The position numbers and the translations under genes were made by a program. This document shows, piece after piece, positions 19,901-60,756 of a stretch of DNA of 64,000 bases (within the stretch, counting starts at the first letter, position 1; each line of letters opens with the position of its first letter). The notes beneath the pieces were generated by a model that had not been told where the DNA came from, ran no database searches, and saw only the letters and a list, made by a program, of their open reading frames with translations. Location: positions 16,802,001 to 16,866,000 of the forward strand of contig OZ296656.1 of assembly GCA_965655095.1 (NCBI GenBank), written 5' to 3'. The stretch is from Haplodiscus bocki. Lineage: Eukaryota.

Positions 19901-20098
19901 AGGATTCTGCCGAATTTGCAGTTTCCGCCACGACGGCACTCATGGCGGCCCCAGTTATCGCTGGGGGCGTAGCTGAGATCGGTATGTCAGTAAGAGGACT
20001 TAGCATAGTGGGTTCATGGCTTAGTTTTACGGGGAACGCCAGGCCCCAACCCTCCTCCTCCATATGAATGGCGCCGGGCTTGGGACCGGTATCTAGCG
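16930..20098 (-). mobile_element. RTE-clade non-LTR retrotransposon, near full length, recent insertion
   Basis: Perfect 14-bp TSD gagaaagctatcat (16916-16929 and 20099-20112). (TGA)n 3' tail at 16926-16944. APE endonuclease and RT in one frame. Visibly higher GC than the flanks. Confidence 0.96.
16947..20063 (-). pseudogene. RTE ORF: APE endonuclease plus reverse transcriptase, split by one in-frame TAA (18612-18614)
   Basis: Endonuclease motifs TWNV, LQETR, YAPT, NQIDFFL, SDH. RT motifs NYRGISLL, QAGFR, DFRAAFDSV, GVRQG, YADD, YLGS. The two ORFs are 78 nt apart in the same frame and read IM*RWAEHFVELLN. Confidence 0.95.
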
Positions 20099-20583
20099 GA
20101 GAAAGCTATCATGTTTTTATTACTGAAATGAGGTGAAAATTGAAAGTTTCTGGCATCCAAGTGGTACTTCTTCATTTCTTCTGTCCAAAATGCATACCTG
20201 ACAGACAGATATGAACTGTATGGATGAGGGGCCAAGTTTTCTTTCTTCGGCGTATAATGCATCAAAAGTTTCAAAGTAATTGCAACAGCCAAAAGGTTGC
20301 CCGAAATTGATGTTTTCAGTTGGAAAATTGAATCCAATATCGGAGATGGTTACTGTAGTTCGCGCATAGTGCAATTTGGCTGCTCAGTTGTTTGTCAGTT
20401 ATTAATTAAAAATTGTATCTGTTTTTTTGGGAAAAAATTAATTATTGAACCAATCGTATGCTCCCAGAAGGGATAAATAACCATGAAGCTGGTTCAATGG
20501 TCTCTTCAATTTAGAAACAGGTAATGCGAAATGTTTTCCGACAGTGGGAATGCGGAGACAATATGTGTTCTACCACAAATTAT

Positions 20584-26789: not shown

Positions 26790-27610
26790 GGTTCGACGCG
26801 ATTTCACCCCAAAATATCGAAACCCAAAATACACAAGCCCGAAATATTGAAACCCAGAAAACCCAATGTCCTAAAACACCCAAAGAAAAAATACCCCAGA
26901 TTGAAACAAAATAAATAGGACTTTTGACCACGGGGACAAAAATTTCAAAAATCAACTCAATTTCTCAAATTAACTTCAAAGATCAACTAAGCCTACCGAA
27001 AAAATGTCAAAAATCCTTGAAAAAACAACCCTTAAGTATTTTTACGCTTGAAAAACTTTAAGAAACCACCATCAATTTTTAAAACCCAGGCACTCTTATT
27101 ACTGCGTCCCTGGCCGTATTTTCAACCTTGAAACTCACTTAAAATAGGTTGAATTTTCTTTTATCTAGAAAAATCTGCAAACGTTTTACACAAAAAGTAT
27201 ATTTCATTGCACAAATAAGTACGTCCTGTTTAAGAGTAGAAGCCTATAAACGTTTACGGCTGAGCGTATATTTACTGTATAAAAAACTACATCCTGTTGA
27301 AAAATAGAAGCATATATATAAATACAACCTTTCTAATTTTGCCCATTTTAGCCTCGCGGAAATATCATCGACAAAAATTAAGGCCGCCCGCGGTCGAAGT
27401 GTGTTCGGGTTCACTTTTAACCAACATCCCCCAGTCTTTGACATATGCACCTGCCATAGGAGGTTAATCACCGAACTCAAAGTTCTTAAAACGGATGATC
27501 CCTGCTGTGAAGGTATAAGTGGAGCTCCCGATGGGCTTACACTTCCCGTAACTTGGTTGAAAAAGTGGGTTGGCAGGTTTCAAAAGTTTCATCTTCAATT
27601 GTAAACAAAA
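26790..27610 (+). repeat. Left TIR of element B, with terminal 15-bp tandem array (cccaaaatatcgaaa-like, ~26808-26900)
   Basis: Inverted match to 41255-42131, e.g. ttaaggccgcccgcgg / ccgcgggcggccttaa, ctcccgatgggctta / taagcccatcgggag, ttggttgaaaaagtggg / cccactttttcaaccaa. Confidence 0.85.
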
Positions 27611-41254: not shown

Positions 41255-42131
41255 ACTGTCGATAAAAGTTTTGTTACCTGCCAGCCCACTTTTTCAACCA
41301 ATTGACACAAAGTATAAGCCCATCGGGAGTCCGTCCAATTACACTTTTACAGCAGGGATTATCTTTTGTAAGAACTCTGAAATCGGTGATTAACATCCTA
41401 CAGCCGGCGCATAAGTAAAAATTGGGGGTGGTCGGTTTCAACTGAACCCCAACACGCTTCAGCCGCGGGCGGCCTTAACTTCTGCCGATGACGTTACCCT
41501 TAAGCTTTTGGAGGCAAAATTAGAACGGTTTTAAATGTATTAATGCTTTTACTCGTAAAGAGTATAAAGTTTTTCATGCATCGAAAGGACGCTCAGCAGT
41601 AAGCGTGTACATGCTTTAGCTCTGGACTAAGATGTAATTCGTTTGTGTTGTTAGAGTAGCCTTTCGAAAAAAACGTGTGTACATTGTTTTCAGGCAGATG
41701 AAAGTTTAACCTAAATTAGGTGATTTTGATGTTTGAAATTACGGCTAGGGTTGCCGTAATAACTATGGCTGGGTTTTATTTCTTATGGTGTTTTTTTCAA
41801 AAGTTTTATGGGGTAGTGATAGTTAAGGGTTCTGTTTTTATTGAATTTTCAGGCTTTCTCCATAAACCTAGTTGCTCTTTGGATTTATTTTGAGAAATTA
41901 AGTTGATTTTTGAAGGTTTTGGCGAATTTTAACTACTTAGTGGCGTCTTGAAACTTTTAGTTCAAGACGCTGTTTTTAATTCAATTTTTCATGTCTATTC
42001 ATTTCTTGTGTTTTTTTAGACTTTTTTTTGGCACTGGGTATTTTAGGCTTGGGAATTTTGGGACTTTGTTTCTTTCGGGTTTAATTTTTTTGAGCATAGT
42101 TATCTCGGATTGATTATTTTGTCTCGCCACC
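41255..42131 (-). repeat. Right TIR of element B, ending ttttgtctcgccacc
   Basis: Inverted match to 26790-27610. Degenerate 15-bp array at ~42030-42120. Confidence 0.85.
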
Positions 42132-42310
42132 GGTTGAAACTACAGTACCAATTGAGTGATTGACAGAATTCTAACAATAAAGGAAGCCAAAACATTTGAA
42201 TTGTAATTAAATACTAAATTATTATCATAATTTTGATGCAAAACTTTATTGCTTATTACAGAAACTTGCTTTTGCCATTATAATTACAGTCATCAAAACT
42301 ATTACCACAT

Positions 42311-43599
42311 TTTCAGACCGGCTTGTGCCGTTGAGGCACTAACAGCTGTCGGGGAAGCGGCCACTTCGTGACGTCTTTGCGCTTGTTCATTTCGAAGTTC
42401 TTTCATAAGCTCACAAAGATGAATCAGTTGTTGAGTGAGTTGGTCTGTTACAGCTTCTATTTGACGCGCAACGTCTTGAAATGTGACGGATTCACTCGGC
42501 GATGTCCGATTCTTGGGATCTGAGATCCCCCTAGGAGAATACTCTAGCAAACTTTCGGTCTTAGTGTTAAAATCGGTTTCGTCGAATTCAACCGCGACCG
42601 ATCGTTTCATATTTCAAGGAAAACAGGCTTCGATTAGATAAAAAAATTGATTTTTATAGAGTTAGAGTTAATGTCTTTAAAGAGAGATAGGATGTTGTTA
42701 GAGGTTTTTTCAGAGCAAGAATCAAAAAATTGTTGAGAAAGATGTGTTGCGAGACGTTCTATTTCTCTCTATCGCGGTATTTGTTGGTCTGCTTAAATCC
42801 GCTTTCTGCGTGCTCAATAACTTGCACTAATTGGTCACGTGGTTTCGAGTCTGTCACGTGATCGTGATTCGGGCCCGTGATTGGGTGCTGGTCTTCACAC
42901 TTAGTTTTTTCCAAAAGATTCTAACGATTTTTGCACTTCAATTTGAGCACAATATGTTCATGTCGTTCTTACTGCATCCTAATTAGTTAACTCTTATCAC
43001 GAAATCTCTACTTCCGTAATTGCATCGTTATCTGAATAAATACAATAAAACAGTTGATATCAATCGACTGAAATCAAAATGGCTAGAAACAGAAGAAAAT
43101 ACCATGTTGAGATATTTTTGTTCACGGGATTAATGAATGAGATTGGAAAAAGTTGCTAACACGAATTTCATAGTGCCTTAAGATGTCCTTTTCGAGTAAT
43201 AACTACAATTGGCGTAATTCCATTATCGCGAAAGTTACACCGTGACATAAACAAAGTAGTTTTCACTTGTTGCACTACTAGTAAGAGGTTGATGCAGGAC
43301 ACTGGACGAGAACCAATTGTCGTGATTTGGAACTTTTTTTCCCAAAAAACTACTGTAGGTGATTCACTAGCACTATCGTAGCACAGACTTCGTTATATAG
43401 GACATTAATCGCTTTCATACCAATGGGTAGGAAATAACAGGACATAGTAGCGTTTATACTGCTGTGTTGATATAGAGCTGCATACATTGCGTATGTTTTA
43501 ATTTCTAATGAATAACTTAAAGTCTCATACACATAACATAGGCTGGTTGCATATTCGTAATTATGTAGAGCTTTAATTTTCCTTCATGCTGGTATGACA
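42311..43599 (-). repeat. Gypsy 3' LTR (~1.29 kb)
   Basis: Aligns to 56411-57674. Starts TGTCAT on the minus strand. Confidence 0.92.
42790..42860 (-). promoter_or_regulatory. Putative LTR promoter: two CACGTG E-boxes, CCAAT box and TATA-like element
   Basis: CACGTG at 42836 and 42855 (56912 and 56931 in the 5' LTR), then ccaattag and tttaagca downstream on minus. Conserved in both LTRs and upstream of the LTR-encoded ATG. Confidence 0.45.
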
Positions 43600-43612
43600 T
43601 TCACCTTCTACA
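43600..43612 (-). other. Polypurine tract
   Basis: Minus-strand gtagaaggtgaa immediately precedes TGTCAT of the 3' LTR. Confidence 0.65.
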
Positions 43613-44651
43613 GGTTGAAACAAGAAGTGCAGGCCAATTGTGGAAGAAGGTACCACTTCTCTGGAAGCGGCATGGCCTACGTTAATTGGGGCAAAACTGG
43701 TCCTTCGTTGGTTTTTTTACAGGGTTTCGAAAAAGATTTGGCAGTCCTTCGCTGGGTGTGGTTAAATGACTGTTAATCACAATTTTCCCACATCTCCGCC
43801 ACTGCGGCTTCATCAGGCTCCGTCTTTGGTGAGTTCAAATATTTGATTGACAACCGGAGGTGCCATATTGTCTGTCCTGCAGTGCTATTCTATATTCGGT
43901 AATGTGGTCATCACTTTTCCGACAGGAAATCCTCCATTTTATCGGCAAATCAAATCCTTTCAATTTTTTTCTATCTCAGGGCGCATCATTATTTTTCAAC
44001 TTTTCTTGGCTGTGATGGGATAGTTCCCCGTATCCGAAGGCAGTTTGGCACCGGCTTAAGTAAACTTCATTGGACGCTTGCATATCGTGAACTTGGGAAA
44101 TTGATTTGGATGCAGCCACGTCATGTTTTTGTGCGCTTTATTTACTTGCTTAAAACAAAGTCGAGTCTTTTGATCTTCTCAACTCTCGGCAGTTGATTCG
44201 TGAGTTCACAGTTATTGCGTTGTAGTCCCTCAGTTTTGGTACTTTGCTCTCCACGCCAGCGCGGCACCTTCGATTTCTGTTTGGCGGCAGTGTGGTTTTT
44301 GTCGCGCCATCACAGCGATCTAATTGAATTACTATCGTCTGTCTTTGGGCAAAATTTATCGTTTTCCGCTTACTCTCAAGTAATGAAAATTCGAGAGCTA
44401 TGCGCCAGCTTTTTCCAATCTCATTATTTGTTTAGTTTCTTCAACTGTGTCAGAAGAAAACACTGTGACGGCATTTTTTCCTTTGAATCGGGTGTGCGGG
44501 TCGTGATTGATGACTTATGGCCTGATCAGTCCTTTTGGTCTACGCGTGTCCTGAAACCTTTTGGTTTTCGTTACTCGTACTTTTTGTATTCCAGGGAATT
44601 GTCGTTGACGTTTGTATCAATGTGTGTTTTCAGAATTTTGTTCTGCGAATC

Positions 44652-45611
44652 ATGTTCCGTGGAGATTCTGCTGTTACTCCCTCGGATCCACAAATCCACC
44701 AGTTGATGGAGGATTTTGAGCGAGAGGTGCTCAAGCAGTCACAGTCTTTAATCACGGAGGATTTGCGGAGGACGTTGCTGTATCATTTTGACCCCGAAAA
44801 GACTGATGCTGTTGGACCGAGTGCGCTGCGTGTTGAGCGTGTTCTAGAAGGCGTGTACGTTTGTGACAGTGAGGACGATTCCGTCATGGCTCCCGAAATG
44901 GTGGAAGCCTTGAAACAGCCGCCTTTGTGTTCGTTTTCTTTCCTTATTTTGTAGTGTCATTTCTGTCACGTGCTCTGTGTCCGGTATGTGTCGTGCATTT
45001 CCCTTGTGTCTGTGATTCATTTTCTTCTATTGTTGAAAAGTAATGTGGAGACTGAGGACATCATCAAACACTTTCGGGCTTTGGATCCATTTGAGCCTTG
45101 CTGAGTGGACCCGTTTGGGATATCCAGACAATTGGCGGTAGATCTAAAACGCAGCCTGAGGAGGCTTTTCGGTAAGTTTTAATCTTCTTTCATTCTGTGT
45201 TACCCGTGTGTTTGTGTGCGTGAGAGGGAGCTGTCAATTTTTTTCTCGTCTTGTGTTGTCATCTCTTCCCTCATCTTGTGTGTGTTTTCTTCCAACTCAG
45301 TTCGTCTTCCGTGGTTTCCGTCATCGTATGTTGTGCTTTTATTCCGTCCAGATGGGGTGTTCCAGTTGACGGAATGTCCGTATCAACTCTGGAGACACTG
45401 ATTCAGTCCTGTGTCTTTGACGGGTGGAGCGACGTTGTCACTCATCAGCAGGTGTCAGCTTCTGTTATGCTTTTCAAGTTTGGTGTCTTATCGATTCCAG
45501 TTCCCTGGTTGTCCGTGGAAGTTGCCCTACCAGGAGGGGGCAGAAATTGTCAGCTGCAGAGTCCTCGTGGTCCCTGTGCGGCTAAAGGAAGCAACGTTTG
45601 TAAGAAACTAG
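44652..45611 (+). pseudogene. Antisense three-exon gene of unknown function inside the Gypsy element
   Basis: Exons 44652-44926, 45041-45171 and 45352-45611 join in frame across GT-AG introns (second donor G|gtaagt, acceptor ccag|). Two internal TGA codons. AATAAA at 45680. Confidence 0.6.
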
Positions 45612-45739
45612 ACAAATCATGTTAAGAATGACGAGCGAGGTTAAATTGTGTTACGCTGAAATCTTGACCAACCTAAAAGAATAAAAATAGGGATCTTGAG
45701 CGTTGAAGCTCAGTGAAGGTGTGAGTCTTGTGGTAGCTA

Positions 45740-46275
45740 AAACAAAACATGCTTTGTAAGGAGGTGACATGATTGATTTATGTGACTTTTCTGGTGAAGA
45801 TCCTGCAGCCTCAGTACTTTATCAGGGGCTTGGTGAGCTTGTGGATTGGCTTGCCTTGGAACGAAGCTTGTCAAGGACGGCTTTCCACAGTCTCTCTTTT
45901 GCAAGACGTACCTGAAATTGGTAGCCCGGTGTTGATGAGCTTACATAAACACCGGAAGTCCACTGAGCTGCAGTTTTGTGAGATAAGTTACCGGTTGCAG
46001 TATGACAAGCCACTAGTGAATAAGAACTGCAAGGAGGCGTCAAAGAAACAACGCGAACGAAAGAAGGCTCCGGTGGTCGGCTTGGCTCTTTTGCATCCAG
46101 AATCCAAATTCGCGTTGGTTGTGGCGCAGGTGCTAGACGCCACGAATGAATTGGAGGAAGTAAGTGAAGTGCACTTAGAACGTCGCATGCAGGCGTTAGA
46201 GCTGACAATTCTCGCATGTCAAGTTAATAAATCTTTAGTGTGTATTAATGTGGTGGAAACGTTACATGAGTACAT
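45740..46275 (-). pseudogene. Gypsy accessory cassette 4 (Cys-containing, unknown)
   Basis: Pyrimidine tract and cag acceptor (46388), ATG 46275. ORFs 46219..46446 and 45988..46188 share a frame. Confidence 0.35.
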
Positions 46276-46329
46276 GGTGTGGTTACGTGTTTGCGTTGAT
46301 GTGTTAGTGTTGATTTGACAGTTGAAAAG

Positions 46330-46436
46330 TGATGAAGTGATGATTGTAAAACGTTTAACGTGAGGATAGAGAGGTGATGATGAGGTGCTGATTGTAAAAC
46401 GTTTAACGTGAGGATAGAGAGAGAGAGAGAGAGAGA
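46330..46436. repeat. 48-bp tandem duplication followed by (GA)n
   Basis: tgatga(a/g)gtg(a/c)tgattgtaaaacgtttaacgtgaggatagagag at 46330 and 46378. Confidence 0.9.
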
Positions 46437-46699
46437 CAAAAAACAACGAGAAATTTGGAAAACATAAAAAAAGAAAATGAGAGGTTCGTTTGACGAAGGT
46501 GGGGAGTGGATGTTGTGTCTTTTGGGGTATAGAATTGTTTCGCTGCGTTTTGTTTTAGGGTTTGCTGCTGTATGGCTTGCTTCGGTTGGTGGTGGAGCGT
46601 ATGAAAAACTACCTGTCAGGGACGTTTCCATTTGCTCTCCAAGTGGAATGATCAGGATGCCAGGCGCATGTGGTGCTGGCATGTATTGAGGAGGAAGAC

Positions 46700-47368
46700 A
46701 TCCCGGACTGTGGTCCTTGGCAGTGTCGTTGTTGAGTCAGGATGGTATTAGCATGTGGTGGGTCTGCTTGCTTGTTGGCATTCTTGTGTGCCAGTTGTTA
46801 AAAGTCCAAAAGAGCTGGTGGTAGATGAAGTGGGCTAGCTTTCTGCTCAGTTGACCAGTTCAATTGAGCAAGGCAATACCATGGTCGTGACTCGAGTAGG
46901 TTCAGATTGGCTGCACAATCTCATCTCGGGTGTCAGTCACAGAAAATTCAACGGGGTTGAGTCGTACAGTGTGGCCGACTTTCTATGGCTGAAGAAGGAA
47001 GAATCTCGCACAGCTTCAATGATGATGAAGTTACCAGGATTCAAGGCGGTCAATATGGTTCTGTAATAATATTGGTGATTCGGGTAGTTACCAAAAACGC
47101 AAGTCAAATACATAGAGAGACGAAACGGGGTGGGGAGTGGTCGGTGTACAGACAATTTGACAGGGGATTCCGTGCGTGTAAAAATTGTTATTTAATGTAT
47201 TGTTTGCTTTCCGGACTTTCTGGCTCGACGATTCCTTTTCCGTGGGTTGGAGGCATCTTCATGGAGGTGGTGGATTACTGGGAATCGTTGGTGGAGTTTC
47301 TGGTCGAGAGCAGAGTAACGGTGAATGCGGAGACGTTCACGGGTGTGAGTGTCAACTTTGAACTCCAT
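46700..47368 (-). pseudogene. Gypsy accessory cassette 3 (unknown)
   Basis: Long pyrimidine tract ending tcctcacttcag (acceptor 47418), ATG 47368 (MEFKVDTHTRERLRIHRY...). ORFs 47192..47680 and 46937..47155 share a frame. Confidence 0.45.
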
Positions 47369-47659
47369 GATGACCGACGTTGAGAGCTCGATTTGCGTTG
47401 ATGGCGTTGCAGGAGAACTGAAGTGAGGATAAAGGTGTAAAAGAACGAAGTTTTTATCAAACAAAAAGAGAAAAAAAGACGAGAAGAAACAGACAAAGGG
47501 AAACAATACAGAAAAAGGGTTAACGTGTAGTGTAGATTGGGTTTTCATGTGGTTTGTTGATAAAGAAATTCTGACTGTGCTGAGAATCTTAGGAGTTAAT
47601 GTTTTGAGCGGGAGAGGGTTAGTGTGCTGCGCGCAGTTTGGGTTGAACTTTTGAAGTTT

Positions 47660-48930
47660 GGTTCTTGTTTCAGTTGCCAAAAATTGTCAAAAGATGTTCA
47701 GTAAGACTGCGAACGATCAGTACTCATTGATGGAGTTTGAGCCGGCTGGATTGGTCCATACAATGATGGTCGTCGATCCTGCTTGTATTCCCCGTCGTTT
47801 CAACTTGGGCGGTCTTTTGCGGCCATGGAAGTTCCCACTGAAGGATGTGTTAGAATGTGGGCTGGCTCGTAATTTGAGTCAGTACTTCGGGTTCAGTGGC
47901 AGTGTGTTGATGCAGCATTTCTACAACATTGCCTGTTATTGTATCCGGTGTATTGTGATTGGAGTCGGGAATGTAAGGACGGAGCGAGCTAAAAAGTGGC
48001 CAAATCTGGAGCTTTTATGTCCTGCTCTTGTTCGGCACGCGAATCCTGATTGGTTGGTCGATATGGTTCTCCACTTTGGGATCGCGTTGGCTGCGGAGGC
48101 GTCTTGACTGACTTGGAATTTAGGAATTTGGTTTATCGGCACTTGAAATGCAGCGAGCAGCTGAAACACCATTGTTGGACTGACGTGTCGGTGCCAATCG
48201 TGAACAGTGTCCTGCGGTTCTGTTTCGGGTTACCCAGTTGGAACAATTTCCCGGTGCTGCAAAAAGCGGTACAGATTATGTTGGTTTCATCGACCAGTTG
48301 CTGTTATAGCCAGGACTTTCTTGACGAAAACTCCAGCGCTAGTTCATAAAACGGGGTGGTGGGCGCTGTCAAATCCCTACGGAGCTGTTTTGGTCATCAT
48401 GGCGTGTCATCAAGTTACCTGTTAGACTGTGGTAAAATAGCAGGTTGCAAAGAATCCCTGTCCAGGTATACACGCCTTGATGATCCGTTGATGACTTCAC
48501 GGTGGCGGGCGTCTCTCAGTGCGAAGTCGGGGGTCTTTGGTGGCCTGGTGTTGTATACTTGAGTGCGGATGAGCATATCTCGAAATGTTTGCGAGTGTAC
48601 AGCACCAAACAGTCGAAACGGAGTGGAGAACCGTGCAATCTGCGGGTATCACCTGCTAGCAAGAAGGTAAAGAAGACAAGGAAGGCAACTCTTCGCGAGA
48701 CTGATGCTGTGGCGAGTTCGTCAGTAGCATCACCTTGTCCTCAAAGCAGTGTTTTAATGGCTGTCGACAGGTTTAGTGAAGACTCTTTGGTTGTTTTGCG
48801 GTGGAAACAAAAATATTCTAACATGGCCTGTGACGTCAAAGACTTATGAACGTGTGAACTTCAGCAGAAACTAATTAACTTGAGACTTTTGATTGCATTG
48901 TTTTTCGCTCTGTTTGCCATTACCATTCAT
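47660..48930 (-). pseudogene. Gypsy accessory cassette 2 (unknown)
   Basis: Pyrimidine tract ending tctttttcag (acceptor 48975), ATG 48930. Stop-interrupted protein-like text, e.g. FSTPFRLFGAVHSQTFRDMLIRTQVYN. Confidence 0.38.
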
Positions 48931-49336
48931 TCTTTTGTAGTCAGTGAAGTGTTTGCTGCAGTTGCTAGTGACTGCTGAAAAAGAAAAAAAACCAGTGAAA
49001 AGGAAGAAAAACGGAAAAAGAATCATGGTAAACCCAAGTGAATGCTTCACTAGGGGCGCTTTGGGAGAAAAAGAACTTATGTGAAAACAGAGCAAGAGGG
49101 CAAAAAATGGGCGACTGAACTCTTTTTTTCTCATGACGATTTCTTCTTCTTTTGTGGGTGTTATTCGAGGTTGACAGAAACTGTTAGTTTCTAGGGTGGT
49201 AAGTTACATATTAACAGAAATATATACATGACTTCTTGAGGTGGGTCTTTGCTAGACAGGAGGTGAAACTTCGGTTTCTGGGGTTGACCAATTGGTACTT
49301 CAGTGCTCTGTAAAAGTAAAAACCTTATAATTGACG

Positions 49337-50133
49337 TTATGCAGCTTTTCCTTCGTTTCTTAAGAGACAAAGTATAGAGAGTCTTGCACGCTTCGATGTT
49401 GGGTGGATGGTAGTAATATGGTAGTGTGTAGGACAACTCGGGGGTGGTAGTCCAATGTTTTTGCAGTTTTTTTGGGATTTACGTGCGAGGTTGCTTTTTG
49501 ATGAGGTTTTTTGTGGACTGTTTACAGGTAGAGAGCTCAGCAACTGAGCTTTTCGAGTTTTCTTAGCCTGAGAGCTAAGATGTTTTGTAGGCTGACTTGA
49601 GACTGTTTTGTGCCTTGTGATTGCAATATTGTAGTTTGTTGGTAGGAGCGTGCTAATAAAACTGTCCAATGCAGTGTTATGTGCGTGTGGGAGTGGTAGA
49701 GTACACATTTGATGACTGGGAGCCTAGTGACTGCTGTTTAATTTGTCAGTTGGATGTGTAGCAGACCTAGATTAGACCTGAGTGAAAATTTGATATGCTT
49801 GATCTCGCGAGCGGTACCATCAGCATGTTTGTGTTGGTGGTGTATAGCAAACTTAGTTTGGTCTGCTCTGATGGGAAGGGAGCAGTTTATGATGAATATG
49901 GTTAAGTAGCGTGATTTCATGTAGTTGTGGTTGGTTTGTGAAGAATGTTTCTAAGTTCACTCCTATGTGAAAGTGTAATTGCCCAGTGCTGGAATGGTGG
50001 ATGTAATGTGGGCACAACGAAGTAAGTCAGTGTAAAGCGTCTTGCAAGACTAAATTATGTGTTTCAAGCGTTGTGTGATGGTGTCTTTTTGAACTGATTT
50101 TTGATCGATGCGAACGCACGCTTGGTAGTGCAT
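49337..50133 (-). pseudogene. Gypsy accessory cassette 1 (unknown; not recognisably env)
   Basis: cctcctgatttcag|ATG at 50133, in frame with ORF 49738..49920. Confidence 0.38.
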
Positions 50134-50230
50134 CTGAAATCAGGAGGAATGAAGACTTCGCGTAATGCGGGTCTCAAGCATCAACATCGTCACAGTTGAC
50201 TCTCTAGCGTTAACTTGTGTGTCATGATGC

Positions 50231-53200
50231 TTAGTGGTTCAAACTGAGTAAGAACTTTGCGATTGTTGGTTGATTGCTTAGTTCAAGCATGAGCTTGTCC
50301 TGGCAGATCCTAGCTTTGGGATTCTCCCGTAATTTGTACCGTGTTGAGTGTGTGAGAGCATGGCCTTGCTCTTGTGATTCGTGATCACCCTTGTCGTGTA
50401 AAGGTGTTGAAGCTGGCTGAGGAGGTACATTGACCGGTTTATGACTGACTGGGTGTTTTTCACATTCGAGTTTTGGTGAGTCGTACTTTGGGGATGATAG
50501 GTCATCGTGAGGTGTAGCTACAGGTGCGTCCTCTTGGAGTATGGGAGGAATTTCGAACCGAGTCATATGAGGTGTGGGTATCGTGGTTTCAGGTTTGGGT
50601 AATAATGTGGTACGCAGGCTTCCGGTTGTAGCTTTATCACGAGTTCTTGAGGGTTTTCCGTCTGGTGACGGATTTTCTTTTCTGATTTTTGATCCTGACA
50701 CCGTGTGGTTGTGAGATGAAAAAAGAGCACATTCATTAATCGTATCCAGGTGTTGGTAAAATTGGTGTTCATCTACTTGAATGTCAAGGACAATCTCGTG
50801 TAATATGAATCTGCGGAGTCGCATGCGATGCACGCGTTGCGTTTTGTGGGTACCAGGTTTGCAATTGACGTAAACGGGTTGTGTGATAATTTCGTGACTT
50901 TGTATGAACCGTTTCAGAGGAGTATTTTGAACTGTGTGTTGTCTGACTGTGTGTAGTACTTAGGGTTCGAGAAAAAAACGTAGTTGCTGACTTTCAACGG
51001 TTGTACAGACGCTTTTCTTTTGTGGTAGTTCTTGTACTTGTGGAAAGCTTTGAAGATGTTGGCGGTTTTGTCTTTGTACTTTTGGTTGATTTCATCAATC
51101 AGAGTGTGGAGTTGGACTTTGGTACAATTCCTTTGCCTTGGATTGCTTAATTTGAGATCCAAAGCGTTGTAAGGAATGAGTCCATGAGAATTGTCAGTGA
51201 AGTACGTTTCAGTGTTATGTGGTACGTTGTGTTGTGTGCCATGATAACTAGATTGAAGTACCAGCCAAGTGAGGTTTGTCTGCAGCTACACTAATCTTCA
51301 GAATTGTTTGAGCTTTTGATGGATCCATTCGATCATCCCAGTGGTTTGTGCTTGTTTGATTGTAGCATGATTGGTCTTACTGCCACATCGACTCATGAGT
51401 TCAGTCAGTACTTGAGGAGCAATTGCCGCTCGTTTGTCAAACGGTCTATGTCTCGGAACATATGCATGTTGAGTTGAAATCTGTGGGAGTGCATGAACAA
51501 CTCAACTGGCGCTCACTTGTCGGAGAGGACCTCCAAAGATGTATCGTTGAAAAACGTCGCAAGCGGTCAGGATCTGCGTAGAACCGTTTGAAGCTGGTAA
51601 TTCTCCGACAAGGTCAACCTCCATTACGTCTTCCGGTCCAACGCCCGGATTATAGATTCGCTCTAGTGGAGGTTGGAGTTGCGTGTTAGAGCAACGCGTG
51701 GCTCATATGCGCATCTGACACCTTTCAATGTAGTGCTGAACTTTACGAGTGAGGTCGAGAACGTAGTACCTAGATTTTAGGACTCTAAACGTTTCAGATG
51801 CACCAGGGTTTCCCTGTATGGTGTTCTCATGCAGTGTCCTGAATATGTCATTTTATTATGTCATCAGGGACTCCTGTTTGCTTGCTCGTGGGTTTACCGG
51901 TGTGGTCGACGTACTGTCGGTACAGGAAGTTGTTGATTACTTGTAATCGATTTTGGTTCCTCACACGTTTTTTAAAGAACTGACTTTCAAAGTTGGGCAG
52001 TGAAGGAGGTTGCTCTCCGTCACGAAGGACACGGATTACTCCTTGAACGTTAACGTCGTTAAATTGTGCCGTTAAAGTTTCATGGTCCGCTATGGGAGTT
52101 AACGGGTTCATTGCGGAGTGGTGTTGTGAACGCTTCGGGACAAACTGTGTGTAGTATGCAACGTCAGAGGAAGTGTGCTCATCGTGTTGGGTAATGTGAC
52201 CGCGCATGAGTTTCAGCCGGGGCTTGCAGTCATCCTCTGATTCACCATCACGTCACCTAACCATCATCAGTAACGCACGGACATCCGCCGCGGTTGTGGG
52301 GGGGCGGAGTGGCTGCACTATCGGTTAACAGTGATGGATCGGCATGGAAGTCTTTTTCGTCATCGGCTTGTTTGATTGAGTCAGTAAGTTTCAGTTGATT
52401 CCTGTCCACTGGTGCTACCTTTAAACGAGAAAGGTAGTCAGCGGCAGGATTCTTGATACCTGGTACTTGCGCGAGTTTTAAATTGAACTGAGGGGCTGAG
52501 TCAAAGAAAGTCCTTAATTTCGGAACAAAATGTTCCTGGAGAAAACTAGTTGAAGCCTTATTATCCCTCATGACTGTGGTAGGTTATTTTACGCCCCAGA
52601 AGACGTGTCCAAACTTGTCAAGTGCAAAGTGCATGGCTAAAAATTCCTTAGCATGAACCGTTAAAGTCATTTGTCCTCCAGTCAACTGATGGGACCTAAA
52701 AACGTTAAGAGCATAGGTTTTCGATTACGTTCTGTTCCTGTTTGCCAGTCTTCAATCAACAGCACATAGCCCGCAGCGTGTTCGCTCGCGTCGCTCAAAA
52801 TTACCAATTGGTGGTCGGGTATTGGGAGCCGTAACGAAAATTTGGCTGCCTTGGCGAGAATTTTGTTTATGTCGAAACTCGGTTTTTTGGTGGACTTGAG
52901 TTTGAGATTTTGTGTCTTTTTGTAGCAACTGGTACAGCGAGAAGACATTCTCGGCTATGTTTGGGATAAATTGCTTGTAAAAGTGAACGAACCTTCTGGA
53001 GTGACTTCACTGAAGTCAAGAGTTAAAGGTTTGTTTAGAAAAGGTCTATTTTTTCGAGAATGGGGTCTGTACCTTGTTTGCTAAAGGATTTGCCTAAAAA
53101 TTTGATCTGACCTTGGCCAAACGCACCTTTACCCGTAAGCAGTTTAAGAACTGCAAGTTCTATTCGCTGAAACACTAATTCAATGTTTTGGAGAAGTTCG

Positions 53201-54800
53201 TCTGCAAAATGCACTGCTTTGCCGATAGCAACAACGTATTGAACGCATCTATCAGTTTTTATCACAGGATCAAGGTATTCTGGGACAAAACTTTTGAGCG
53301 CTGAGAGTGACCTATTCAAGGCTTGAGCAAAACCTCGTCACGCGAAAGTACGTGCGCCGAAGTTAATTGACAGTAGTTGAGTCGATTGCTCATCTGCCTT
53401 TTGCAGGCACTGGCAGGCTTGGGAACAACCAAGCCTAGAAAAGTACCTTTTCACGCCATATTCTGAGCTGCATCAGCAGTCTTTGTGATTGGGGGGTTGT
53501 GCTCGTTGTGATCGTGCTTGATGAGGTGGTTGATTTGTCTCAGGTCCCCTAAAATTAGGTTCCCATTATGTTTACAGTGGGCAAAAGTGGGCAATGAGTA
53601 CTTGTTAAAAAGCAGTTTGGTAATTAAATCGTATTCTTGCTGTGACGCGAGTTAAACAAGCATCTCATCTTTGAGGTTCGTTGACGTTGTTGGGTTTTGC
53701 GCGTAGACGGGCTCATAATGTTTGGGAGTTAACTTATTTATATTTTCGTTGTCAATCCTTATTAGGTCTATGTCAAGTCTAGATTTAATCCCCATTATCA
53801 AGTCTCTGTCTAGCGAAAATCTTGTTATACTATATCAGTACCGTTCTACCATAGCTTGATCTTCGAAAGTCAGTTAACAGTTTTTGGAGCTGAATTGATC
53901 CAGAAAAGCCCTGCGCATTCGGTTTAGTCTTTCGAGATCACGGAGTCGCACGAGTTCATTAGAAATTCGCCTTTCAACGGGGAGGAGCTTCGTGGGATCC
54001 TCGCACGTCCCAGGAATAGGGTACCATTGTTTGTCGGACGGTGAATTGGGAGTCTGGATGAACTGATTGATAACGTTGTTGGCTTCCTCGAGGTGTGAGG
54101 AGACAAGGGTGAGTTGTTCCAACGACATTGTTTGCACGTGATTTGCTCGTCCGAGTGTGAGTGTTTTGAATTTAGCGAAAACGGTTCCGTGGTTTATGCT
54201 GAACGAGTGGGCATTCGGGTTCGTAATTTGAATGGTTGTCCGTCTGTCTTGGAGTTGTTTTATCGCTGGAGTCACTATGAGGTCAGATTTTCGGGTGAAA
54301 GCGGAAGTAGCTTCAGTGATGTCGAAAGAAATGTCAATTGCAATTGCTGCAATAGTTGGTGCCATATCTTGTTAGAACGGGCCTACAACATTTTTTTGGA
54401 GGGTTTTCAGTTCAAAAGTTCCGCATCGGAATTTCCGATGTTGTGACCAAAGCTGTAATGACAGGTCCGAGAAATGAACAACGTTGTTCTTGAGTTCGAG
54501 CATCACTGATAGAAAAAGACATGCCGATGTGAAAGTTGTCCTTGGTTGGCAGTACAATGAAGATCTCCCCAAATTTTCTCCTGCAAGAAAAAAATCGAAG
54601 TTGGATTGTTTTCGGATGGGCACAATGTTGCCGTTGGCTATCTGAATTTTGTATACAAGTGAGGGTGGTTCTTCTAGCAGCGCTGAGATTTCGGCAGTGA
54701 GTTTGCTGCGTAGCTCATTTTCGGACATAGCGCGTTGTATGGTGCCAGTGCCAGGAAGGGCATGACTTTGGTAATCACGAACTTGCAAGGTATGTACAGC
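50231..54800 (-). pseudogene. pol: Gypsy pol: aspartic protease, RT, RNase H, integrase (decayed)
   Basis: PR ALPGTGTIQRAMSE (decayed DTG, ~54750). RT FAQALNRSLSA and RCVQYVVAIG (decayed YVDD, ~53235). RH LVILSDASEHAAGYVLL and VPGIKNPAADYLSRL. IN NPGASETF, EVDLVGELPASNG..ILTACDVF and VHRMRLR. Confidence 0.9.
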
Positions 54801-55199
54801 ATGCGGTCTTTTTTGTTCAGTCTGTGAGTTGCAGACAAGGGGCGGACTCCTACTTGTGGTCTCTTGGTGCGGCAATTTTGTCTTGTCAGGTCGTCTATCA
54901 CTTCGGGTGACACTTTTTATATCTAGTGGTGTGGTACCGTCAGATTGTGTGCTTTTTCAGGATTCATCGGTAGAGGGGCTTTGCCTGTTAGTGGCCGCAC
55001 TGTCGGCCAGGCGTGTGCTCGGGATCAGGTGATAGTTGTTGTCGGTGGTCTGAGTCAAGACGTATTTTTTAAGGGAGGAGTTGCACACCCTAGGAGGCTG
55101 CCGGCATCCGTTGGGTTCGCTGTCTTTGGTAGTTTTAGTCGTTTTTTTTTAGTTTTTCTAACACATTCATGTGATTTAGAGAAGATAAAAGGCGCACTT

Positions 55200-56700
55200 T
55201 TGTCATTTTGCTGTGGGTGACATGGCATGATCAGTTTCGAGACTGTTCGTCTTCGCTCCCCGATAAGTTGGAGAAATCAGGTTGCTTGGTGACTTCGTTC
55301 AGTGGGGCCCGTTTAGGAGATGATTTGAATTTCCTACAGAATTTCTTGTTTTTGTGCGTATTCTGCTTGTCATACGGGACATTTCGAAATGCAGTTGTGT
55401 CTCTCGCTCTGTGTCTACTGTCTGGTGCTGAGTGTATCCACTTGAATTGCGCACCATTTTTGAATTGTACTTCGGTCACTCTTGCTGTGGTTACTCTTGT
55501 GGTTGTCAATTGGCCTCGTCACCTTTCTTGCTACGGCTTTTCATTTTTTATGTCCCCTTTTCCCACAGTAATGGCACTCTCCGCTGAAATGAGGACTATC
55601 ATTTGTGAAAGTGGTGTTGTGAAAGTCTTGTGGTGGTCTGTTGTAGCGGTACGTGATATCGTTTAATGGCATTGCCTGGTTTGGTTGAGGGATCACTTGT
55701 TGGTATTGGAATCGTCGTAGTGCAAGAACTTTGATCTACCCGACTGATGCATCAACTTTCCCTGCAGTGGAGAGTTCGTGCTGAATTTTTATCGGCAATT
55801 TGCCGAACAGAAGTATTTCAACAAATTTGGAGATCTTGTCGCCAAATGCTTGATTGGCTGTCTTTTTTAGCGTCTTCAGAAATTCTGTAAAAGTTTCCTT
55901 GATGGTTGCATAGATGAGTTGGTTGCCTATGTAATTGATTACTTCTATGAAATTTTTGGGAGCATTTTTTTGCTGAATTTGTAGGAGGAAGTCTCTAAGG
56001 GTGGCTTCTGAGTTGACTCTCAGTGTTTGCCAAAACTCAATGGCTTCATCTCTCAGGAGGTTTGGGAAGTCGTGTAGTTTGTTTCCTTCTTTGATCCTGT
56101 GTTAACGGGGTTGCATGTGGTTGAGGAGTAAATGTTCAAACTCATTGAATTTGTCTTTGGACCCTCGGAATTTGGGTACTTGAGTGTGGAACACTTTGTT
56201 CGGTGACATCACGTTGGAGGATTGCGGGGATTCTGTTGGTTGCCCTTGCTATCTGATTCATCTGGGATGAGGTCTATTCTACGGGTCGTTCGTCTTCATC
56301 GTCAAAGCTGAATCCTCGGTGATGTGGTGGCAATTCTGGAGAAGTGAGTCGGTCGGGTAGTGCGAGTGTGCTGAGTGGCGTGAGGGCGGGGTTTGCTGTT
56401 CCTGACACCTTTTCAGACCGTCTTGTGCTGCCCTTCAACGTGAGGAGACGGTTTTTTCGTGACATCTGTGCGCTTGTTCACCTCGAAGCTTTTCCATTAG
56501 CTCACAGAGATGAGCCAACTGTCAAGTGATTGGGTCTGTTACAAGTTAATTTGACGCCCAACGTCTTTACACGTGACGGATTCACTCGGTGATGTCTCAT
56601 TTTCGGGATCTGAGATTCTCGGAGTATATTCTAGCAAAAGTTCGGTGTGAGTGTTACAATCCGTTTCCTCAATTTCTACCGCGACCAATCGTTTCTTATT
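55200..56700 (-). pseudogene. gag: Gypsy gag (begins inside the 5' LTR; CCHC knuckle)
   Basis: VPKFRGSKDKFNEFEHLLLNH (~56120-56180), LLRDEAIEFWQTL, zinc knuckle ECHYCGKRGHK (~55548-55582). Confidence 0.8.
56392..56410 (-). other. Primer-binding site, tRNA-Leu-like (degenerate)
   Basis: Minus-strand aGGTGTCAGGAac directly after the 5' LTR resembles TGGTGTCAG(G/A)A, complementary to the tRNA-Leu 3' end. Confidence 0.6.
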
Positions 56701-57674
56701 TCCAGGAAAACAGGCTTTGATTATATAATAAAATCGAATTTAGTAGAGTTAGAGCTAATGTCTGTAATGAGAGAGAAGATATTTTCAGAGATAATTTCAG
56801 CACGAAAATCAGAAAAATGTCTTGTGAGATGTTCTATTTCTCTCTATCTGCGGTTTTTGTTGGTTTGCTTAAACTCACCTTTTGCGTGCCCAATAAATTG
56901 CACTAATTGGTCACGTGGTTTTGAGTCTGTCACGTGATCGTGATTCGGGCCCGTGACTGGCTGCTGGTCTTCACACTTAGTTCTTTTCAAAAGATTCTGA
57001 CAATAAGTGGACCTCAATTTCAGCCTAATATGTTCATGTCGTTCCTACTGCATCATAATTGCTCAACTCCTATCACGAAAACTATACTTCCGTAATTGCA
57101 TTGTTATCTGAGTAAATACAACAAAATGGTTGACATCAATTGACTCAAATCAAAATGGCTAGAAACAGAAAAGTATACCGTGTTGAGATATTTTTGTTCA
57201 CGGGATTAATGAATGAGTTTAGAAAAAGTTGCTAACACAAAATTCACACTGCCCTATGATGATATCTCCGAATACTATTTATCACAAGCGTGATGCTGAT
57301 TTCATGAATTTTACACCTTGATATAAACAAATTAGTTTTCACTCATTGCACTGTTAGTAAGAGATTGATGCAGGAAACACTGGACGAGTTCAAATTATCG
57401 TGATTTGGAAGATTTTCACCAAAACCACTGCACGCGATTCTCTAGCACTATCGTAGCACAGATTTCGTTATATAAGACATGAATCGCTTTCACACCAATG
57501 GGTAGGAAGTAATAAGTCATAGTAGCGTTCATATCGGTGTGTTGTTATGGAGCTGCATAAATTGCTTATGTATTAGTTTGTAATGAATAAATTGAAAATT
57601 CTTATAGATAACATAGGCTAGTTTCATATTCGTTTTTATGTTGAGTTTATATCTTCCTTCTTGCTGGCATGACA
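56411..57674 (-). repeat. Gypsy 5' LTR (~1.26 kb)
   Basis: Aligns to 42311-43599 with many substitutions. Confidence 0.92.
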
Positions 57675-57949
57675 CAGATCTAGGATCAATTTTTCAGACA
57701 CACACCTATTTGAAATTGAATGTTTTATAGAGCACCAAAAACATTGAAGCTTTTGTTGGGAGAGTCACATTTTTGACTCACAGCGCCAAAAATTTTGTGA
57801 AGTGAATAACAGTTTTGTCTCACAATGCCGAAAGTTTTGTGAGGTTCTTTTCGGTGGGATCCAATTTTTTTGAGCTTTGCTACTGCTTTTCTGTTCAAGG
57901 TGTTTTTGTGCATATTTTGACTTGTTGTATATGTTTTTGACACGACTAA

Positions 57950-58218
57950 CATTTGAAAACATCAACAGATTTTAGTAATTAGAGGCGTCATCAAACTTTC
58001 AGTTCAAGTCGCTGGTAATTATTGTTAATTAGTTAGTTTGCATGGCTATTTGAATCTTAGGATATTTTGGGATTTCGGGTATTTTGGCTTGGGGTTTCTG
58101 GGGCTTTAATATTGTGGGACTTTGGGTATTTTGGCCTCTGGTTTTTTGGTCTTTGGTATTTTGGCCTTGGGTAATTTGGGCTTAGTTATTTTAGGTTTGG
58201 GTATTTTGTCCTGCAACC
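57950..58218 (-). repeat. Orphan TIR end related to the element B TIR, with ~10 copies of a 15-bp unit (gggtattttggnctt-like)
   Basis: ggcgtcatcaaactttcagttcaagtcgctg matches ~41942-41972. Ends gggtattttgtcctgcaacc, like ttattttgtctcgccacc at 42131. Confidence 0.75.
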
Positions 58219-58911: not shown

Positions 58912-60756
58912 TGTCGCGAGGGTGGTAGAATATTTTGGTTCAAATTTCTTTTGAAAATACTTGTCACTTTCTTGGCGTGCGGCCGTTACTGAATAGACAA
59001 CCTTAAGTCTCAAAGTTGCCTTGCCGGCCCGCGTGAACAAAGTAGAGCGTGAATTCGCTGGCATGGACTTAGTGAATAGCTATGGAGTGGCCTAAAACTT
59101 TGTTAAGATTTTATTCAAAGCAAGCATTTCTATCATATAAACCGAGAAAGTTATGGCTTCAAACCTAATACTTGTAATGTCAGACGTGGTTGAGAGTTAA
59201 GAGAGGGAACGGTACTAATTTAGGCACATAAGATTTGGTTCAAATTTCGCTCTATTCCAATAATACTCAAAGTTAGCAACTTTACCACTTTGGAGCTGTT
59301 TGAACTAGGTTATAAACACCCAATAATTTTAATCCAGAATGACAATTCAAAATCTTTCAACTATATTATAGGGAAAATTTTGTTGCACGCGCTTCTATTT
59401 GTCGCGAAAGTAAAATACTAAATTAACGGTAGCTCCAGTAACCAGAATTATTACCTTTTCTAATCTTGAAAGAGATAAGTTGCCACTGAGCACCATCGAT
59501 TTGCTTTAGGTCTGTTCTAGAACGAAGAGTAAATTCACCCGTCTTTTCTAGTAGTTTATTTTAAAAGTGTTCCTCTAAGTCAGTTTTAGCCAAGACTAAG
59601 TCATTCGCGTAACAAATCAACCTAGCGATTTCTCTTGGGCCAGTACGTAGTTGTCAACCCGTAGAAAAATATCTCGGGATTTTGTTGACCGCTGGCTCAG
59701 TTCCGATCAGAAGTTTGGATTATAAACTCAGACGACATAACTCGCTTTATGGCGTAGCGACCGTGCGATTTCTCCTAGGTTCAGGCAATTACCATTGGAT
59801 ATCAAATGAACCTGATTCTGATTGAAACTGGGTTAGTAAGTAATTTTATTTAAGACAGCATCATTTCACTTCAATGGAGGAAGCCAATAAAGGCACAACC
59901 CCAAAAGGGAAGGACCACTGAGCGATTTCTCTTAGGTATCGGGAGGTTTTATTGAGCTCCTGTTCAGAGCAATTTCCGCGGCAACTCCTATTCAGAGTAT
60001 CTGCTGAGGGACCCGATCCTAATTAACTAAGTTTTCTGGCGAGATGTACTCTACCAAGGTTAGTCATTTTAAATACCAACAATTTATTTGGTTTATTTTA
60101 AATGGAGTTGCTGTTGATGGCTCTTGTTGGTTTCTCTTCACAAAAGCATTATTTTCTTGATATTCTTCGAAAGTTGAGAATAGTTGGGTCAGTCTCGGAA
60201 TAAGAATGGTCAAAATTTGAAGATATTTGAAGTTTTTGTTAAGTTTTCAATTTAGAGAGTTTTTAGAATTTCAGGGAAAGAGAGTTGAAATTTTTGTAGT
60301 TTTCGATTTCACAGTTGGTAGTTGTCAGTAGGCGATCAGAAAAGTTATGATCTTTCATTTTGGCGCCCGGCGCTCAATGTTTCCGTGCTCTCGTACTTTT
60401 TATGACCAACGACGGGAAGCCACCCGCCAAGGAGTACCGAAAATGGTGATCCTCCAAAAGGAGTCAAAAATTGAACTCTTAGGAAGCAAGGTGTGCCGTT
60501 CGTTAAGCAATAAAATCAACCTCCGAGAACGGGGGGGGGGGGGGGTAACGAGTAGAAAAGCTTCGTTGATATCCGTCTGAAAAAACCAACGAAATTTTGA
60601 AATTTCAAAAAATGCAATTCCAACTTTGTTACCGCTCTCCAACAACTATCCCTTCAAACCGTAAGGTGCTATTTTTAATTCTATTATGTCATTTCTAAAC
60701 TTAGAATTAGCACTCTTTAGCGTTATGGCTCGTTTAGCGTTATGTCTAACGCGACA
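58912..60756 (+). mobile_element. Long solo-LTR-like repeat, copy 2
   Basis: Begins TGTCGCG and ends CGCGACA. Inverted homolog of 20584-22441. Confidence 0.7.

Follow-up and report, generated by a model that had tools for sequence, protein, structure and literature searches.

A Ty3/Gypsy Element With a Long Region Separating pol From the 3′ LTR

We analyzed a window of 64,000 nucleotides from Haplodiscus bocki (contig OZ296656.1 of assembly GCA_965655095.1, positions 16,802,001 to 16,866,000), in which positions 42311-57674 are a decayed, once autonomous Ty3/Gypsy long terminal repeat (LTR) retrotransposon with gag-pol on the minus strand. The element is 15 kb in size and has a gap of about 6.6 kb that separates pol from the 3′ LTR. 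For this gap, an original prediction had proposed a complex-retrovirus-like Gypsy with four tandem accessory genes on the gag-pol strand, each opened by a pyrimidine tract ending in CAG (a splice acceptor) and followed by an ATG. We refer to the acceptor/ATG pairs 50134/50133, 48975/48930, 47418/47368, and 46388/46275 as cassettes 1-4, and use sense for the gag-pol (minus) strand and antisense for the plus strand. The predicted distance of about 6.6 kb between pol and the polypurine tract (PPT) was correct, with the end of pol at 50231 and the start of the 3′ LTR at 43599.

The domains stand in Gypsy order on the minus strand, with RT_RNaseH (about 52.5-52.7 kb; Pfam, 1.8e-5) upstream of Integrase_H2C2 (about 51.7-51.9 kb; 3.9e-6). 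The integrase resembles foamy virus integrase in a PDB sequence search (1.5e-5), and the reverse transcriptase (RT) core has no Pfam match in this broken copy. The pol remnant (50231-54800, minus) consists of protease (PR), a spacer, RT, RNase H, integrase and a tail rich in P, T, and H, and is interrupted by stops and frame switches; the spacer between PR and RT has no Pfam match and we take it to be dUTPase-like. The gag remnant (55541-56212, minus) contains a CCHC-like knuckle and has sense z scores of +3.2 to +4.7. Over 1,727 codons the gag-pol path meets 15 stops and 6 frame switches. A non-standard genetic code was ruled out for the element, since these stops are 6 TAA, 6 TGA, and 3 TAG.

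The 5′ LTR (56411-57674, minus) starts with TGTCAT and holds a consensus splice donor at 56878, which is altered in the 3′ LTR (42311-43599, minus). Because the LTRs have diverged (82.4% identity across 1,261 columns, Kimura two-parameter distance 0.20, 9 gap openings), the copy is considered old, with about 10% neutral change per part. The target-site duplication agrees at 4 of 5 positions (57675-57679 and 42306-42310). Directly after the 5′ LTR lies a primer binding site (PBS)-like stretch (56395-56410, minus), presumably tRNA-Leu-like, and a short purine tract (PPT) precedes the 3′ LTR; both are present and both are degenerate. The gag frame probably starts inside the LTR, which would place the PBS within coding sequence.

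Coding Signal in the Gap Lies Mainly on the Antisense Strand

Stop depletion was assessed by comparing fewest-stop paths with 150 Markov shuffles. The three pol regions were depleted on the minus strand (P ≤ 0.03; gag 0.08-0.19), and none of the four cassettes showed significant depletion of sense stops (P 0.11-0.90). Cassette 1 gave P values of 0.11-0.19 on the minus strand and 0.87-0.93 on the plus strand. The corresponding values were 0.74-0.90 and 0.007 (1 of 150 shuffles) for cassette 2, 0.25-0.36 and 0.09-0.11 for cassette 3, and 0.55-0.59 and 0.007-0.013 for cassette 4. On the plus strand, 43600-44700 gave P ≤ 0.007 (0-1 of 150 shuffles).

A frameshift-tolerant protein-likeness test was applied to 15 regions on both strands with 200 shuffles each, and was rerun with the window's own long interspersed nuclear element (LINE) as amino-acid background, Markov order 1 or 2 and 100 shuffles. 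All four gag-pol regions scored z +3.9 to +6.0 on the minus strand in the first run (2.3-6.0 across both runs) and about 0 on the plus strand. In the first run, cassette 2 scored +4.4 on the plus strand and -0.1 on the minus strand, cassette 4 scored +4.3 and +0.4, and 44630-45625 scored +4.0 and -1.2; the values were +1.7 and +1.4 for cassette 3 and -1.5 and +0.7 for cassette 1. The plus-strand scores of 47680-48930, 45700-46320, and 44630-45625 were reached by none of 200 shuffles each, and by none of 100 each in the rerun. The LTRs and the right flank, which served as controls, were null on both strands. Two caveats apply to these scores: the left flank reached z +1.9 on the plus strand, and the intact LINE also scored on its shadow strand (+6.0 vs. 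+12.2). The sense coding that had been predicted for cassettes 2 and 4 shows no signal; both cassettes, like 44.6-45.6 kb, score as coding on the plus strand.

An unsupervised two-strand path with a non-coding state placed gag-pol on the minus strand and all coding runs in the gap on the plus strand. The antisense segments contain 3 stops in 941 codons, and the sense strand read in that register contains 33, a count that is partly circular because the segments were chosen as stop-bounded. They display three-base periodicity, with G making up 29-39% of first positions and A being scarce at third positions, a codon pattern absent from the predicted sense frames and from 43594-44520. Read on the sense strand, third positions of the antisense genes are A31 C32, compared to A31 C28 in gag-pol, and GC content is 46% in the antisense genes, 45% in gag-pol and 31-37% in the flanks. 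No terminal repeats bounding the antisense block were found. The A/C bias and GC content shared with gag-pol, together with this lack of bounding repeats, fit long residence in the element RNA rather than a nested insert. Leave-one-out antisense codon models supported three of four segments, the exception being 46961-47380, and a codon model trained on gag-pol favored the plus strand for cassette 4 and 44630-45625. Overall, we regard antisense coding of 44.6-49.0 kb as likely.

Antisense ORFs and Cassette 1

Starting from the 3′ LTR, a stop-poor antisense frame (43594-44630, plus) begins at the terminal ATG of the LTR and has 3 stops before 44704. Its protein-likeness z is only 0.8-1.8, and it is probably a leader or weakly coding because it has no codon-position asymmetry. 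A 370-codon antisense gene at 43594-44706 was considered and downgraded, being stop-poor but without codon asymmetry or homologues.

The next open reading frames (ORFs) belong to a probable multi-exon antisense gene (44634-45625, plus; antisense z +2.7 to +4.0, sense -0.3 to -1.2), made up of an acidic 106-codon open segment (44634-44951, ATG at 44652) and two more segments, which end at 45171 and 45625. As judged from the sequence, the gene is probably split by a putative GT-AG intron (45172-45300, plus) of 129 nt, which reads GTAAGT...CAG and has stops in all three frames. A pyrimidine motif within this intron (45239-45260, plus) recurs in similar form, but in opposite orientation, in two sense tracts (46435-46453 and 47468-47489, minus), hinting that both are splice-type tracts. 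Downstream lies an antisense ORF of 181 codons without a stop (45773-46318, plus; antisense z +3.3 to +5.2, sense +0.3 to +0.7), which is helical, has a basic patch and overlaps cassette 4.

Cassette 3 probably corresponds to an antisense ORF at 46605-47383 (plus) with a frame switch between about 46960 and 47060. Its strand is inseparable by composition, because the 3′ half of this ORF is the exact antiparallel register of the sense frame (sense ORF3). The longest antisense ORF (47655-48849, plus; antisense z +3.1 to +4.4, sense -0.1 to +0.2) has about 400 codons and encodes a Cys-rich product with a basic patch. It has frame switches near 48050 and 48483, an internal stop at 48347, a candidate acceptor near 47673 with an ATG at 47694 (or 47547), and homologues (P0003-P0005). 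Past its stop, within 48850-48975 (plus), the frame enters a 19-residue segment (48886-48942, mean hydropathy 2.58) that is the sole strong hydrophobic segment in the gap, possibly a membrane anchor or a composition effect.

In cassette 1 (49200-50134, minus) the CAG is followed at once by the ATG, 97 nt past the pol stop. It is a weak candidate for a sense ORF3 or is non-coding; its sense z was 0.3-1.5 and its antisense z negative in three composition runs. A self-tblastx comparison detected no paralogy among the cassettes.

Candidate Sense-Strand Acceptors and Spacer Tracts

The four CAG/ATG pairs are indeed present on the minus strand, with all eight coordinates correct. T-rich sense tracts, defined as 17 or more T per 30 nt, occur 5 times in 43613-50230, where 500 shuffles gave 0.22 on average and never more than 3, and are absent from 6,181 nt of gag-pol. 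Such a tract had been described for each acceptor; it was found before 48975 (two tracts), 47418 and 46388 but not before 50134, and an additional one, absent from the original prediction, lies at 45656-45689. Ranked by pyrimidine content of the upstream 30 nt, the four CAGs are 1, 4, 10, and 11 of 117, with 48975 first and 50134 tenth. An ATG lies within 45 nt of 53% of CAGs and within 113 nt of 81%, and the ATG spacing is unremarkable for three of the four acceptors; the immediate adjacency seen at 50134/50133 occurs at 1 of 116 CAGs. The ORFs were not largely frame-consistent as had been claimed: cassettes 1-4 hit their first sense stop after 27, 19, 58, and 18 codons and over their first 150 codons meet 5, 6, 2, and 3 stops, respectively. 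A branch-point-like CACGTTAA is present on the minus strand at 47527 and 46410, before two of the acceptors.

Each pyrimidine/A-rich tract sits 30-120 nt past an antisense stop codon. The tracts at 48968-49097 (acceptor 48975) are pyrimidine-rich on the minus strand and A/G-rich on the plus strand, lie downstream of the antisense ORF ending at 48849, and are kept as a Phe-rich stretch in homologue P0003. The tract at 47436-47524 (acceptor 47418), next to the branch-point-like site at 47527, is kept in P0004, P0005, and P0006. The spacer at 46330-46489 (acceptor 46388) consists of a 48-bp tandem duplication with stops in all three plus-strand frames, followed by a tract, and the tract at 45656-45689 contains AATAAA on the plus strand at 45680, past the stop at 45623. 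When aligned with each other, the spacers had composition in common and no long common motif. The duplication (46330-46421, 95% identical copies) doubles CACGTTAA beside the 46388 acceptor. We also considered the A-rich tracts as Lys/Glu linkers of one antisense polyprotein. This is excluded at 46.3-46.5 kb by the stops in three frames; the idea, which was suggested by the two-strand path, may still apply to the spacer at 47.4-47.65 kb.

The sense tracts may be spacers of an antisense cluster that double as sense acceptors, the latter being possible because of the consensus donor at 56878 in the 5′ LTR. If used, these acceptors would yield RNAs complementary to the antisense genes and not the four proposed proteins.

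Copies of the Region on Other Contigs

One sense frame of 50133-46534, a query that ends short of cassette 4, was compared by phmmer to 1.84 billion representatives and returned four matches (E 2.6e-15 to 3.6e-9), which are single ENA ORFs on four different contigs. They are collinear with 49198-48544 and 47922-46612, spacers included, and most blocks diverge by about 0.2-0.65 substitutions per site. A stretch of at least 46.6-49.2 kb, together with its tracts, is therefore repeated on four other contigs, in line with the original expectation of a region common to other copies. Among 25 aligned Trp residues of the homologues, 11 face a TGA and 4 a TGG in the window, indicating that the homologues are not intact proteins but TGA-read-through calls, like the window's own P0002. 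TGAs in the sense frames (48723, 48651, 47895, 47802, and 46939) lie opposite a read-through residue in the homologues and are thus probably stops common to both.

No homologue of cassette 1 was found in the one sense frame searched, and the sense-frame search with cassette 3 gave 0 of 15 candidates. A search with 45773-46315 (54 candidates) identified one 94% identical open copy on another contig (P0007), which is possibly an allele. The antisense frame 43594-44706 retrieved itself alone among 1,693 candidates.

The substitutions were evaluated by a likelihood test of homologue residues given the window, in which 15 of 33 aligned blocks were used. The 18 blocks dropped were short, <30% identical or in spacers, and include a 73-codon block strongly against sense ORF3. 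The sense paths of cassettes 2 and 3 were rejected (ratios -9.4 and -3.8), as 0 of 60 sense simulations were as low in each case. The antisense path of cassette 3 was accepted, its ratio of +3.7 being reached by 1 of 60 neutral simulations. In a path-free version of the test, 2 of 120 neutral simulations reached the difference of best antisense over best sense, and 5 of 120 reached that of antisense over neutral. Taken block by block, a simple omega test that lacked a term for a stop-free ancestor gave no information.

Searches for Known Families and Structures

Pfam searches with six gap frames and three gag-pol frames (15 queries) and with 14 segments gave nothing significant in the gap. The predicted lack of an env signal was borne out, with neither an env-like nor any other Pfam family in the six gap frames. 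Transmembrane features had likewise been predicted to be lacking; in the sense frames tested, the mean hydropathy over 19 residues was at most 1.52. With regard to a short transmembrane accessory ORF like the sORF2/FAST-like fusogen of the MDG1 group, this value compares to 2.58 in the antisense tail, which lies past a stop. PDB sequence searches with three antisense frames gave 0 matches each, PHROGs searches with 8 segments gave a best value of 0.0032 to a family of unknown function, and Rfam gave 0 matches over 42-58 kb.

Two ESM Atlas leads, a HEAT/ARM-like match of 45773-46315 (best 0.79) and a DUF5035 match of 44634-44921 (best 0.94), were treated as noise because recognition was low (1536 and 1611) and 1 of 10 top matches agreed. 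Single-sequence AlphaFold2 models had predicted local distance difference test (pLDDT) values of 37.5 and 43.9, which do not suffice for a fold search.

Other Features of the Element and the Window

The last 300 nt of the LTR (42302-42613 and 56456-56740, minus) contain a 103-codon open frame, which has a coiled-coil-like Pfam match below the cut-off (COMP, E 2.6e-4) and is called coding by the two-strand path. At 56761-56878 (minus), the consensus donor of the 5′ LTR is followed by a pyrimidine-rich stretch ending in CAG about 117 nt downstream, a possible leader intron within the LTR. Just beyond the 5′ LTR lies a tandem array with a 15-bp period (58063-58208), and a related stretch is present at 42022-42081, on the opposite side of the insertion.

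Elsewhere in the window, a nearly intact LINE-like element (16947-20105, minus), which we take to be RTE-like, encodes an endonuclease and an RT with a single in-frame stop at 18612-18614. A 1.85-kb repeat occurs as two copies of opposite orientation (20593-22441 and 58912-60730, 74% identical). An inverted pair (26937-27593 and 41261-41921; 660 nt, 72% identical) surrounds 13.7 kb of AT-rich DNA and possibly represents the termini of a decayed large DNA transposon. Short ORF remnants at 3500-13200 and 28100-28850 resemble, as far as we can assign them, Polinton/Maverick integrase, ATPase, capsid, and polymerase. ARAGORN detected no tRNA genes in the window.

Discussion

The explanation that we favor, with a probability of about 0.6, is that the 6.6-kb region carries antisense ORFs, three to five in number, that belong to no known family, with the tracts as spacers. 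From the original model of a complex-retrovirus-like Gypsy with sense accessory genes, this retains the Gypsy type, the long, family-shared and largely coding region, the unknown proteins and the lack of env, and changes the strand for most of the genes. Seen in this way, the element is closer to plant elements that have accessory genes in antisense than to a complex retrovirus with spliced genes. Outside cassette 1, the sense tracts do not seem to lead into conserved sense proteins, and cassette 1 may be one conventional spliced ORF3. The antisense genes would be transcribed from a promoter in or beside the 3′ LTR, as for Grande gene23, HBZ of human T-cell leukemia virus (HTLV) and MchSLE-1 (see below). 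In such a transcript 43.6-44.6 kb would serve as the leader, and the downstream genes would be reached via splicing to plus-strand acceptors or via internal promoters in the spacers. Candidate plus-strand acceptors precede ATGs near 44634, 46559, and 47673; they are leads only, because T-rich runs on the plus strand are common throughout the element. The antisense intron could persist because it would not be spliced from genomic RNA. The predicted products, of about 100-400 amino acids with basic patches and no env features, would most likely act as nuclear regulators of element RNA, as the basic patches would suggest, or as counter-silencing factors, and the antisense RNA itself could pair with genomic RNA. 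Replication is by ordinary gag-pol.

Several results weigh against this explanation. The composition of cassette 3 is undecided (z 0.6-1.7; 0.0 in the leave-one-out test). The antisense ratio of cassette 2 in the homologue test (-1.3) lies between the neutral (-8.7) and the antisense (+7.4) expectation; it was reached by 6 of 60 neutral simulations, and 56 of 60 antisense simulations were at or above it. The codon model trained on gag-pol gave the sense strand of cassette 2 a z of +2.2 (2 of 150) and the plus strand +0.2. The sense path behind this score for the most part runs antiparallel to, and in register with, the antisense ORF and has to pass 11 stops, and for these reasons we take the score as a shadow; it is still a contrary result. 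The sense tracts resemble true acceptors (48975 ranking 1 of 117, the CACGTTAA sites, and the donor at 56878) and are not fully explained. T-rich plus-strand tracts are as frequent in gag-pol as in the gap and do not set the plus-strand acceptors above chance. Apart from the 94% identical copy, no intact relative of the antisense ORFs was found with the 43594-44706 and 45773-46315 frames, the antisense frames at 44.6-45.6 and 47.7-48.8 kb being unsearched, and the homologues are single ORF calls, none of which ties the block to pol or the LTRs. Finally, the promoter, splicing, and function of the antisense cluster are all inferred.

The sense tracts are central to the alternatives that involve splicing of the sense RNA. 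In the original model, four sense accessory proteins are produced through alternative cis-splicing that starts at an LTR donor or through trans-splicing of a spliced leader (SL), and the tracts being above chance, absent from gag-pol and kept in homologues fits this model, as do the 5′ LTR donor and the branch-point-like sites before two acceptors. The sense frame of cassette 3, which has an Arg-rich patch and over its first 150 codons meets just 2 stops, and the sense score of cassette 2 under the pol-trained codon model also speak for it. We nevertheless consider it highly improbable, as the ATGs open just 18-58 codons, cassettes 2 and 4 lack both sense stop depletion and protein-likeness, and the homologues reject the sense paths and probably share TGA stops in these frames. 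In addition, the sense frame of cassette 3 retrieved no candidate, and the residue is changed over the 47418 CAG in P0004 and over the 48975 CAG in P0003. A mixed design, in which cassette 1 alone is a conventional spliced ORF3 on the sense strand behind pol and all else is the antisense cluster, is compatible with the favored explanation and would add one sense gene to it. Its CAG abuts the ATG close behind pol, at the usual env position, and cassette 1 scores consistently higher in sense than in antisense (P 0.11-0.19 vs. 0.87-0.93; z 0.3-1.5 vs. negative). We consider this design possible but doubtful, since no test of cassette 1 is significant, its tract is weak, the single frame used as a query gave no homologue, and neither a Pfam match nor a strongly hydrophobic segment was seen in it. 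It is quite unlikely, in our view, that the element is an ambisense complex Gypsy. Here, an antisense transcript from the 3′ LTR would be cis- or SL trans-spliced into four or five accessory mRNAs in an operon-like manner, the sense RNA would be spliced from the 5′ LTR donor to sites just past each antisense gene, and cassette 1 would be a sense ORF3. Nested complementary RNAs (or short basic peptides) would then regulate each accessory gene, and no such arrangement was found in the literature searched.

Two further alternatives concern the origin of the antisense signal. The block could have been inserted in this copy or in a small subfamily, either as a repeat of its own or as DNA captured from a host or virus, in which case the four homologous contigs would carry copies of that repeat. 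The opposite orientation and the GT-AG intron, as in a host gene, the lack of a homologue that ties the block to pol or the LTRs, and a stop rate of 0.3% compared to 0.9% in gag-pol are in agreement with such an insertion. The lower stop rate, however, results partly from picking stop-bounded segments, the block has no flanking terminal repeats and no match to a transposase, RT or viral family, and its GC content and strand bias resemble gag-pol, unlike the flanks; we therefore hold an insertion to be unlikely. Alternatively, the gap might be mostly non-coding 3′ sequence, both sets of ORFs being by-products of strand-biased composition. That no family, structure or intact homologue was identified, the low pLDDT values and the low Atlas recognition would be expected from this, and 43.6-44.6 kb illustrates that stop-poor frames can arise here without codon asymmetry. 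However, three segments beat all shuffles although the null models keep strand composition up to trinucleotides, and both the three-base periodicity and the homologue test, with antisense over neutral reached by 5 of 120 simulations, argue for coding, making a non-coding gap very unlikely.

Most descriptions of antisense accessory ORFs in LTR retrotransposons come from plants and fungi, and what these ORFs do is still to be settled (PMC7264820). Retand contains antisense ORFs in a pol-to-3′ LTR region of 2,933-6,566 bp (PMC11963269), and Grande, RIRE2 and Boty have antisense ORFs between pol and the LTR, with gene23 of Grande having its own antisense promoter (PMC7264820). The element described here shares with the plant Ty3/Gypsy elements Retand, Grande1, and RIRE2 the Gypsy backbone, a long pol-to-3′ LTR region, antisense ORFs, the lack of env, and extra ORFs whose function is unknown and for which a role as nuclear regulators has been proposed. 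As in Retand, its antisense ORFs lie within the gap, which at about 6.6 kb compares to 2.9-6.6 kb there. It differs from Retand in lacking TRP28 (PF04195) or any other Pfam domain; TRP28 had no match in six-frame or per-segment Pfam scans, the sensitivity of which is lowered by decay. Compared to all three plant elements, its units are short, tandem and three to five in number, with a probable intron and with sense polypyrimidine tracts in each spacer, and it has no long tandem-repeat array.

Complex retroviruses also have antisense genes, namely HBZ of HTLV-1 and APH-2 of HTLV-2 (PMC11963269, PMC7264820). Like these, the antisense accessory genes proposed here would be expressed from the 3′ LTR side and encode basic, possibly nuclear products. 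In contrast to HBZ and APH-2, there is no env and no sequence similarity, and several antisense ORFs occupy their own space instead of one overlapping sense genes. The element further differs from complex retroviruses in having no env match (Pfam, PDB) and no set of sense accessory ORFs.

In animals, post-pol accessory products have been described for Caenorhabditis elegans Cer1 with CERV (PMC10309623), for the env of Oikopleura Tor elements (PMC4402516) and for the short ORFs of the Drosophila MDG1 group (10.1101/2025.03.14.642691). These Gypsy-like elements express accessory products via spliced or internally promoted RNA, Tor elements using both splicing and an internal promoter for the sense env (PMC4402516), and, should cassette 1 be real, provide its precedent. 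The CERV and Tor env products are few and lie on the sense strand, whereas the main coding signal here is antisense. In the Mytilus Steamer-like element MchSLE-1, an antisense RNA that contains a translatable ORF is expressed from the 3′ LTR (PMC10974842); this is one antisense ORF, and the available text of that report does not mention a multi-gene pol-to-LTR cluster. Extra coding capacity in invertebrate Gypsy-like elements is known from bdelloid rotifer LTR elements (PMC5408684) and planarian Burro (PMC6431247), which are likewise enlarged and have a dUTPase-like region between PR and RT. Their extra ORFs, in contrast, have recognizable domains (GDSL, DEDDy, env, BIR, MATH), and antisense clusters are not described in the available parts of these reports. 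In the open literature searched, no non-plant Gypsy element with an antisense gene cluster was found; subscription journals, Repbase Reports or supplements may hold one.

The significance of the finding is limited by the copy being dead and by its proteins being without family assignment. A whole antisense cluster with an intron and no known domain in an unrelated lineage would mean that this design arose again, with several new protein families. It is also a warning that, when extra ORFs are annotated solely on the strand of gag-pol, they can turn out to be shadows of genuine antisense genes. The element would provide a second system in which to study whether such antisense genes export RNA, counter silencing or regulate transposition.

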